Virus record (IMG/VR): IMGVR_UViG_2534681697_000028
Coordinates: 1-10,392 of that record
Length of the DNA stretch: 10,392 bases
Source of the DNA: a virus
Taxonomy: Duplodnaviria; Heunggongvirae; Uroviricota; Caudoviricetes
Direction: 5' to 3' (one strand)
Position numbers and translations under genes: made by a program. Under the pieces are notes generated by a model. The model was given only the letters and a program-made list of their open reading frames with translations. It was not told the origin of the DNA and did no database searches. This document shows positions 8,808 to 9,014 of this stretch, one piece after another (the stretch's first letter is position 1; every line of letters begins with the position of its first letter).

Positions 8808-9014
8808 TTAAGCAGCCGTTCCGCGTGCTTCCTGTTCGCGTTCTTTCTGCCAGGCCAACACATCATCCTCATACCATCCGCGACGGCGTAAACCAACGCG
8901 AAAACCCTGCGGAAATTCTCCGGCGTTGATCATGCTTTGCAGCGTGCTGTCTGCCTTGATGTGGATAATTTTTTTTACTTCCTAGCGAAAGATAATTTTT
9001 CTGATTGCTTCCAT
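8808..9014 (-). pseudogene. alpA: AlpA-family (MerR-like HTH) regulator interrupted by an in-frame TAG at codon 11
   Basis: From ATG 9014 (SD AAGGT upstream): MEAIRKIIFR-TAG-EVKKIIHIKADSTLQSMINAGEFPQGFRVGLRRRGWYEDDVLAWQKEREQEARGTAA. The part after the stop matches the AlpA pattern (HTH, G.FP, G.R...W, E.DV..W). The TAG (8982-8984) falls at the conserved R-L-x-E-V position. The next ATG (8933) has no SD and would give only 41 aa. Confidence 0.6.

Follow-up and report, generated by a model that had tools for sequence, protein, structure and literature searches.

A probable private null mutation in alpA of an already decaying PICI in Shigella boydii

Does an amber codon near the start of an alpA-type gene silence the island that carries it, and is it what holds the island in place? 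The locus that raises this question lies in a stretch of 10,392 nucleotides of viral DNA (hereafter the window), where a TAG codon interrupts a short minus-strand gene that follows an integrase gene. AlpA proteins of this kind have been studied in PICIs of Escherichia coli, where four allelic variants have been reported (PMC6092414). In EcCICFT073, deletion of alpA abolishes island transfer (PMC6092414), and in EcCIMP1, where the helper phage Kapi1 induces the gene, alpA is needed for the island to excise and circularise (PMC11773190). The PICI protein is a transcription activator of the island cycle, not an excision factor like Vis; it autoactivates, and its over-expression leads to uncontrolled island replication and lower viability (PMC6092414). 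The preliminary description of the locus had treated AlpA as a required activator, and for Gram-negative PICIs these alpA deletion data bear that out (PMC6092414, PMC11773190). We consider it very likely that the window holds a private null mutation in alpA of an already decaying, immobilised EcCICFT073-type PICI of S. boydii ATCC 9905. Both the kind of element (PICI) and the kind of event (pseudogenisation) are already known, and the combination is ordinary for Shigella.

The window is a 100% match to AERN01000081.1 (assembly GCA_000193915.2), and two products called on that sequence, EFW53813.1 and EFW53814.1, are labelled S. boydii ATCC 9905. The reverse-complement translation of window positions 8805-9020 reads ITMEAIRKIIFR, a stop, EVKKIIHIKADSTLQSMINAGEFPQGFRVGLRRRGWYEDDVLAWQKEREQEARGTAA and a second stop, so that the peptide before the amber codon is MEAIRKIIFR and the part after it is EVKKIIHIKADSTLQSMINAGEFPQGFRVGLRRRGWYEDDVLAWQKEREQEARGTAA. 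The ATG occupies 9014-9012 and the TAA stop 8810-8808; hence the gene coincides with 8808-9014. When compared with the homolog of E. coli Nissle 1917 (L001 9109-9315), which is annotated as a 68-aa helix-turn-helix regulator (WP_000387478.1), 206 of 207 bases were identical and 67 of 68 codons were the same. The sole difference is at codon 11, CAG in the intact allele and TAG in the window, which arises via C to T (on the plus strand, G to A at 8984). The 206/207 identity to an intact gene marks the amber codon as a single-base nonsense mutation rather than a fortuitous stop in a non-coding frame. The amber at codon 11 of alpA that had been described is therefore real, its coordinates are exact, and it stands one base away from the intact Nissle allele. 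The positions of the main features are collected in Table 1.

Table 1. Features of the alpA locus and its surroundings, in window coordinates.
Feature	Position	Strand	Basis or remark
Tyrosine integrase, catalytic part	9490..10392	-	Pfam and comparison with intact relatives
Terminator-like hairpin and T-run ending the upstream 76-aa ORF	9130..9153	-	
Palindromic unit TAAAAACGGTgggaACTGTTTTTA, candidate operator, 5' of alpA	9078..9101	-	putative function
Shine-Dalgarno of alpA, AAGG, 9 nt 5' of the ATG	9024..9027	-	read from the sequence
Pseudogene of an alpA-type regulator (68 codons)	8808..9014	-	translation, alignment with the intact allele, Pfam
TAG amber, codon 11, from CAG (Gln) via C to T on the coding strand	8982..8984	-	
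A8 homopolymer, codons 13-16, begins four bases 3' of the amber	8969..8976	-	
ATG codon 30, the nearest canonical start in frame beyond the amber	8931..8933	-	41-aa product EFW53814.1 begins here
isrK	7911-7835	-	Rfam
C4 antisense RNA	7810-7723	-	Rfam
C4 target element c4-a1b1	7449-7400	-	Rfam
Degraded IS110-family element	about 5900-7313	+	NF033542 (RNA-guided transposase) matched in two ORFs

Repaired at codon 11, the 68-aa protein matched Pfam PF05930 (Phage_AlpA) over residues 8-56 (profile 4-51) with E=0.0035 and 17.6 bits, which is under the gathering cut-off of 21. All seven full-length homologs matched PF05930 (best E=1.9e-4) and HTH_17 (PF12728; best 3.7e-5). The best PDB match was 8c3t, an 'AlpA family phage regulatory protein', and was weak in profile as well as single-sequence searches (E=0.23-0.48); none of the NCBIfam models matched the repaired protein. 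In an alignment that included the EcCICFT073 AlpA and 8c3t, residues G32, F34, P35, W47, and V52 were invariant and W55 nearly so. AlpA is thus a small single-domain protein of 68 aa with a G-x-FP ... W ... V..W signature. An AlphaFold2 model of an intact homolog (P0001), based on a seven-sequence alignment, had a mean pLDDT of 63 and an implausible all-helical layout. With regard to gene order, the minus strand carries int (10392-9490), the 76-aa ORF, alpA (9014-8808), an RNA/icd region, DUF4222, and the primase gene, and the order int-alpA-primase is the same in Nissle and CFT073. Position and homology point to an activator role for the AlpA of the window, at 28% identity to the tested EcCICFT073 protein and with a sub-threshold Pfam score. 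By analogy with the tested systems, we infer that alpA of the intact relatives encodes an excisionase-like helix-turn-helix activator of the island.

The likeness to EcCICFT073 extends from the regulator to the backbone of the island. In both, alpA is the first gene after int and heads the replication/packaging operon; the two proteins are of the same size class (62 aa in EcCICFT073 and 68 aa in the window) and align end to end with a common GxFP...GW...VLAW motif, although their 28% identity makes them different allelic types. The shared backbone includes the primase (94.5% amino acid identity), capsid (90%), decoration protein (95%), and DUF4222 (85%). In contrast, the integrases share 22% identity, the attachment site is tRNA-Pro(GGG)/yejM in the window island and roxA-phoQ in CFT073, and the alpA allele of the window is null (amber), unlike that of EcCICFT073. 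EcCIMP1 also has a canonical alpA 3' of int that is required for excision and is helper-induced, which supports the view that a null allele would block induction. EcCIMP1 is a different island with a different helper (Kapi1) and is likened here by description.

The general layout is that of an EcCICFT073-type PICI (int - alpA - primase in a single orientation, ~12 kb against an expected 10-15 kb), and homologs of c1499 (capsid E-like; PF03864, E=1.5e-48) and c1500 (head decoration; PF02924, E=9.4e-15) were identified in the window. The preliminary description had called the capsid and primase genes intact, and we agree: both are full length, with the identities to EcCICFT073 given above. The decoration gene, despite its 95% identity to that of CFT073, has a 32-bp frameshifting deletion. 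Two other classes of satellite were considered and rejected. A P4-like satellite does not fit the larger ORFs, which are a lambda-type capsid E, a gpD-like protein, DUF4222, and a D5_N primase; the P4 hallmarks that accompany the alpha primase are psu, delta, and sid, and Pfam scans of these larger ORFs found neither Psu nor Sid families. P4 Vis, CP4-57 AlpA, and other excisionase-type helix-turn-helix proteins (PF05930/PF12728) are likewise small single-domain proteins beside a tyrosine integrase, and P1/P4-type C4 antisense-RNA elements are also present 3' of the window alpA. However, the window AlpA scores below the Pfam threshold, P4 hallmark genes are absent from the ORFs scanned, and the P1/P4 immunity likeness is limited to the C4/CI-like RNA and the icd-like ORF. 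A capsid-forming PICI (cf-PICI) was rejected as well: only major capsid and decoration homologs occur, the complete head module is absent, and no portal, protease, or terminase matches were found among the window ORFs. Judged by its sequence, the window island is a mosaic relative of EcCICFT073 and a PICI by descent.

At the far end of the operon, a minus-strand query of window positions 430-660 matched lambdoid E. coli phages over 464-646 (its bases 15-197) at about 80% identity, in stretches that are unannotated or assigned to hypothetical proteins. Within this match, CACTATTTATGAAAATTTTTCGG (window about 480-600, minus strand) resembles the lambda left end just inside cosN, and the stretch at about 480-600 is probably the cos site of the island. 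The Nu1-like terS that Nissle and S. dysenteriae 1012 have between the 137-aa and 94-aa ORFs (window 300-670, minus strand) is without a counterpart in the window, and so is the 144-aa ORF that CFT073 has there.

Upstream of alpA, the hairpin at 9130-9153 bounds a promoter region at 9020-9130. On the strand of alpA, a scan for sigma-70 consensus sequences gave no promoter, which would fit an activator-dependent promoter yet is uninformative. The region contains a palindromic 20-nt unit, TAAAAAC[AG]GT-N4-ACCGTTTTTA, which is a candidate operator for AlpA or for a helper-phage activator. The unit forms a tandem pair in most islands (L001 9379-9422), those with the intact allele WP_000387478.1 among them, whereas it is single in the window and throughout the S. 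boydii lineage, most members of which have an intact alpA. We considered the corresponding 20-bp deletion as a private lesion of the window island and rejected it, given that all islands of this Shigella lineage have it, mostly with an intact alpA.

Downstream of alpA, a 437-codon minus-strand ORF (8793-7480) matches PF10554 ('Ash protein family') through its residues 291-385, that is, window 7923-7639, which lies over isrK and C4; only the last ~44 residues (389-432) match Icd-like proteins. The ORF was weighed as a real gene that would be subject to polarity and was rejected as mostly an artefact, since the Ash match coincides with the isrK/C4 RNA genes. This suggests that PF10554 may partly model translated RNA genes. 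On the plus strand, a pair of small genes (8225-8422 and 8447-8659), the first for a YlcI/YnfO (DUF3950) protein and the second an ORF of 70 aa, is convergent with alpA and antisense to the long minus-strand ORF. Over its residues 12-70, the second shares 73% identity with a CFT073 protein of 57 aa, and a bidirectional terminator-like hairpin occurs at 8749-8781.

The amber codon is one of several lesions in the window island and is not the sole cause of its immobility. The integrase gene has lost one nucleotide (CCAGG to CCGG) between 10385 and 10384, 7-8 bases from the end of the window, which shifts the frame after about codon 115 and splits a 114-aa arm-binding N-terminus (outside the window) from the catalytic part. 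As a result, the int ORF of 300 aa is what the frameshift has left of the gene, and its ATG at 10392 is an artefactual start. The same deletion is found in a second S. boydii assembly (GCA_003572355.1; QWSH01000038.1, locus L014), while in sister strains int is damaged in other ways: by an 8-nt insertion, a 14-nt deletion, the insertion of an IS or, in L010, a premature stop. In most of these strains alpA is intact. The island spans from tRNA-Pro (L002 7985) to an attR remnant ~12 kb away and is integrated 3' of yejM. A 17-nt direct repeat, CTCTCGTGCCGACCAAA (the 3' end of tRNA-Pro), flanks the island on either side in L008, whereas the source strain has the full repeat at attL alone. The source attR was not found within the first 20-kb locus and was located via the 94-aa right-end gene. 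There (L017 about 7500-7540, on the source contig, just to the right of the window), a 29-bp deletion has cut the core from 17 to 10 nt and left CTCTCGTGCC. Two other Shigella genomes (L016 and L018) have a different, shorter deletion at the same place. The truncation of attR lowers the case for a functional PICI, not for a PICI by descent.

Further lesions lie within the operon. The 32-bp deletion in the head-decoration gene (gpD-like, minus strand, about 1320-1400) is near 1334, between two 14-nt direct repeats (CCGCTGATGCTGGC), and the 96-aa ORF at 1097-1387 is the C-terminal remnant of the frameshifted gene. Of the SSB gene (2914-3072, minus strand) only the C-terminal third is left, 53-57 residues. 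The IS110-family element takes the place of several small ORFs that CFT073 and Nissle have between icd and the 77-aa ORF, and the transposase of the element is split into two ORFs (6092-6580, profile 1-138; 6871-7287, profile 206-342). The sister locus L010 has about 490 bp extra beside the IS110-family element.

If the intact relatives work as EcCICFT073 and EcCIMP1 do, their 68-aa AlpA would be switched on by a helper phage and would then activate its own promoter and the excision-replication-packaging operon of the island. On the minus strand this predicted operon would run through the C4/isrK RNA region, the icd-like ORF, DUF4222, the primase, the capsid and decoration genes, and the cos-like region. 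With the C to T change at Gln11 (CAG), translation would stop after 10 residues and functional AlpA would be absent. Since AlpA is required in EcCICFT073 and EcCIMP1, a null allele is expected to render the island non-inducible, and on that analogy we infer that AlpA function and induction have been lost in the TAG island. The amber codon would then be one step in the neutral decay of a non-excising, non-inducible element, and not a regulatory device.

The strongest alternative is that the loss of AlpA was selected, in that the host would gain from locking an island that is costly to induce while keeping its cargo (e.g., phage-interference functions), which would amount to true domestication. 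The reported effects of AlpA over-expression on replication and viability (PMC6092414) would provide such a cost. Primase and capsid are intact in the window island, and independent A8 to A7 knockouts of alpA occur elsewhere, several of them in islands with a full-length 413-aa integrase. Nonetheless, we regard this reading as unlikely. Sister islands of the same Shigella lineage were sampled via the neighbouring 76-aa gene, so that the sample is unbiased by the state of alpA, and nine of ten such loci had a wild-type alpA (the tenth had A7) while their integrases bear differing lesions. This pattern resembles random decay in which int is usually struck first; in addition, the decoration and SSB genes are broken too, and an IS lies within the operon. 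The sister-lineage data favour neutral decay over selected loss. The preliminary description had pictured an immobilised, domesticated island. The first part of that picture is supported (alpA amber, int frameshift, attR cut), whereas the second is not, because the different int lesions in sister strains fit lineage-by-lineage decay, typical of Shigella. The full-length primase and capsid genes do not in themselves demonstrate domestication.

A related but less probable reading concerns the A8 run beside the amber codon. The last A of the run starts an in-frame ATT (8969-8967) from which NCBI calls a 53-aa product, and the run may be prone to mutation or to slippage. Allele-specific 82-mers were compared with 5426 complete E. 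coli genomes. The alpA type of the window was carried by 200 of these, and 180 of the 200 had the exact wild-type 82-mer; the wild-type counterpart WP_000387478.1 occurs in about 180 complete E. coli genomes, as well as in Nissle 1917 and ATCC 25922. The A8 to A7 frameshift (L003-L005, L007-L011, L026) was present in 4 of the 200 alpA-carrying genomes and at eight of the ten loci with a 41-aa call. A7 alleles occur on both two-unit and one-unit promoter haplotypes and, in several islands, beside a full-length 413-aa integrase. Some A7 assemblies are old drafts that may hold homopolymer errors, yet four complete genomes carry A7 too. It is conceivable, though in our judgement improbable, that the run serves as a slippage switch of alpA that recurrently turns the PICI off (perhaps also on), the amber being a further hit on a gene selected for silencing. 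If this were true, PICI inducibility might be recurrently switched off in E. coli and Shigella populations, and perhaps on again by replication or transcriptional slippage. The A8 tract is, in any case, a candidate hot spot that deserves a population-level look.

The preliminary description had named one finding that would count against it, that homologs begin at the downstream ATG and yield the same short product. This is not so. A database search with the repaired protein gave 18 clusters, the majority with a length of 68 aa and 79-99% identity, and the homologs share a conserved N-terminus, MEAI[RK]K[IV]I[FIV]R[QT]EVKK. Residues K6, I8, R10, E12, V13, K14, and K15 are invariant in the seven full-length homologs. 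Five of these have Q at position 11 and the other two T, while the EcCICFT073 protein and PDB 8c3t, both distant, have K. Since diverged homologs retain the N-terminal 15 residues, the native product is 68 aa. The earlier statement that the stop falls at a conserved place also holds, in that the codon lies within this N-terminal segment, next to invariant R10 and E12. All seven database entries below 68 aa could be explained: P0009 is internally deleted, P0014 is frameshifted near the start, P0003 and P0016-P0018 are annotated as partial, and P0013 is the disrupted TAG allele. Gene callers give a 41-aa product in many assemblies; among the ten loci examined with such a call, one was the TAG allele (source), eight were A7, and one was intact with a short gene call. 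The 41-aa products in the databases are disrupted alleles or a short call on an intact allele, and not a native short gene.

The sequence after the amber codon gives little room for a restart. There is no in-frame ATG, GTG, or TTG between codon 11 and the ATG of codon 30, and no purine-rich Shine-Dalgarno sequence in the ACGCTGCAAAGC upstream of that ATG. EFW53814.1 (41 aa), which starts there, begins mid-domain in the Pfam alignment, and the 41-aa fragment has no Pfam match. A motif AGGAAG overlaps the amber codon, however, and the in-frame ATT (codon 16) is 10 nt 3' of its AGGA core; it is from this ATT that the NCBI annotation of the second assembly has the 53-aa product (P0013, WP_241556514.1). 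The absence of an alternative SD-led start that had been proposed is therefore correct for the ATG of codon 30, but AGGAAG does precede the ATT. Translation starts very weakly at ATT, although the one behind AGGAAG could yield a 53-aa product in traces. That translation restarts at codon 16 or codon 30 and gives a functional shortened protein (53 or 41 aa), as the spacing of AGGAAG and ATT and the products called by NCBI and by gene callers might suggest, is nevertheless very improbable. The residues lost include all seven invariant ones and lie inside the Pfam AlpA match, which begins at residue 8; moreover, independent short homologs are absent, given that every entry below 68 aa is deleted, frameshifted, partial, or TAG-derived.

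Equally improbable is that the codon is read through, by a host suppressor tRNA or naturally, so that enough AlpA is made for a self-activating switch. Amber suppressors are rare among natural isolates, and UAG is read through at a low basal level. The sole tRNA of the 20-kb locus is tRNA-Pro(GGG), and with the integrase frameshifted and attR truncated, excision would fail even with AlpA present. It is true that a Gln-inserting suppressor (supE-like tRNA-Gln, CUA) would undo CAG to TAG and give the exact wild-type protein, and that small amounts of AlpA might be amplified by its autoactivation (PMC6092414). Conditional expression of the TAG allele, in any host that gains such a Gln-inserting suppressor, is conceivable though improbable.

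We return to the reading of a private null mutation in a decaying island and to the distribution of the allele on which the word private depends. Locus L014 of the second S. boydii assembly, found through the 53-aa 'AlpA family' protein P0013, has the identical TAG allele together with the int 1-nt deletion of the window and the one-unit alpA promoter variant. The presence of TAG in two assemblies indicates inheritance within a sub-lineage, not a fault of the reads or of the assembly. In the 82-mer search, TAG was detected in none of the 200 alpA-carrying complete E. coli genomes, and the exact TAG 36-mer had no matches in GTDB species-representative genomes or JGI metagenome contigs. The TAG allele is private to one S. 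boydii sub-lineage. A degenerate pattern for all alpA alleles likewise had no matches in the GTDB representative genome set, and the alpA allele family is confined to some E. coli and Shigella strains. Least probable of all the alternatives is a sequencing or assembly error in a truly intact gene: although the source is an early draft (AERN01, 2010-11) and several other old drafts vary at the nearby homopolymer, the change is a substitution and not a homopolymer indel, and the independent GCA_003572355.1 shares it along with the int deletion and promoter variant.

For the databases, the finding means that the 41-aa EFW53814.1 and the 53-aa WP_241556514.1, both 'AlpA family' entries, are fragments of a nonsense gene and merit a pseudogene flag. 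The TAG island could act as a negative control in induction assays. For the biology of these elements, the locus is a clean natural case of sister Shigella PICIs that are independently losing their activator, their recombinase, and their att site.
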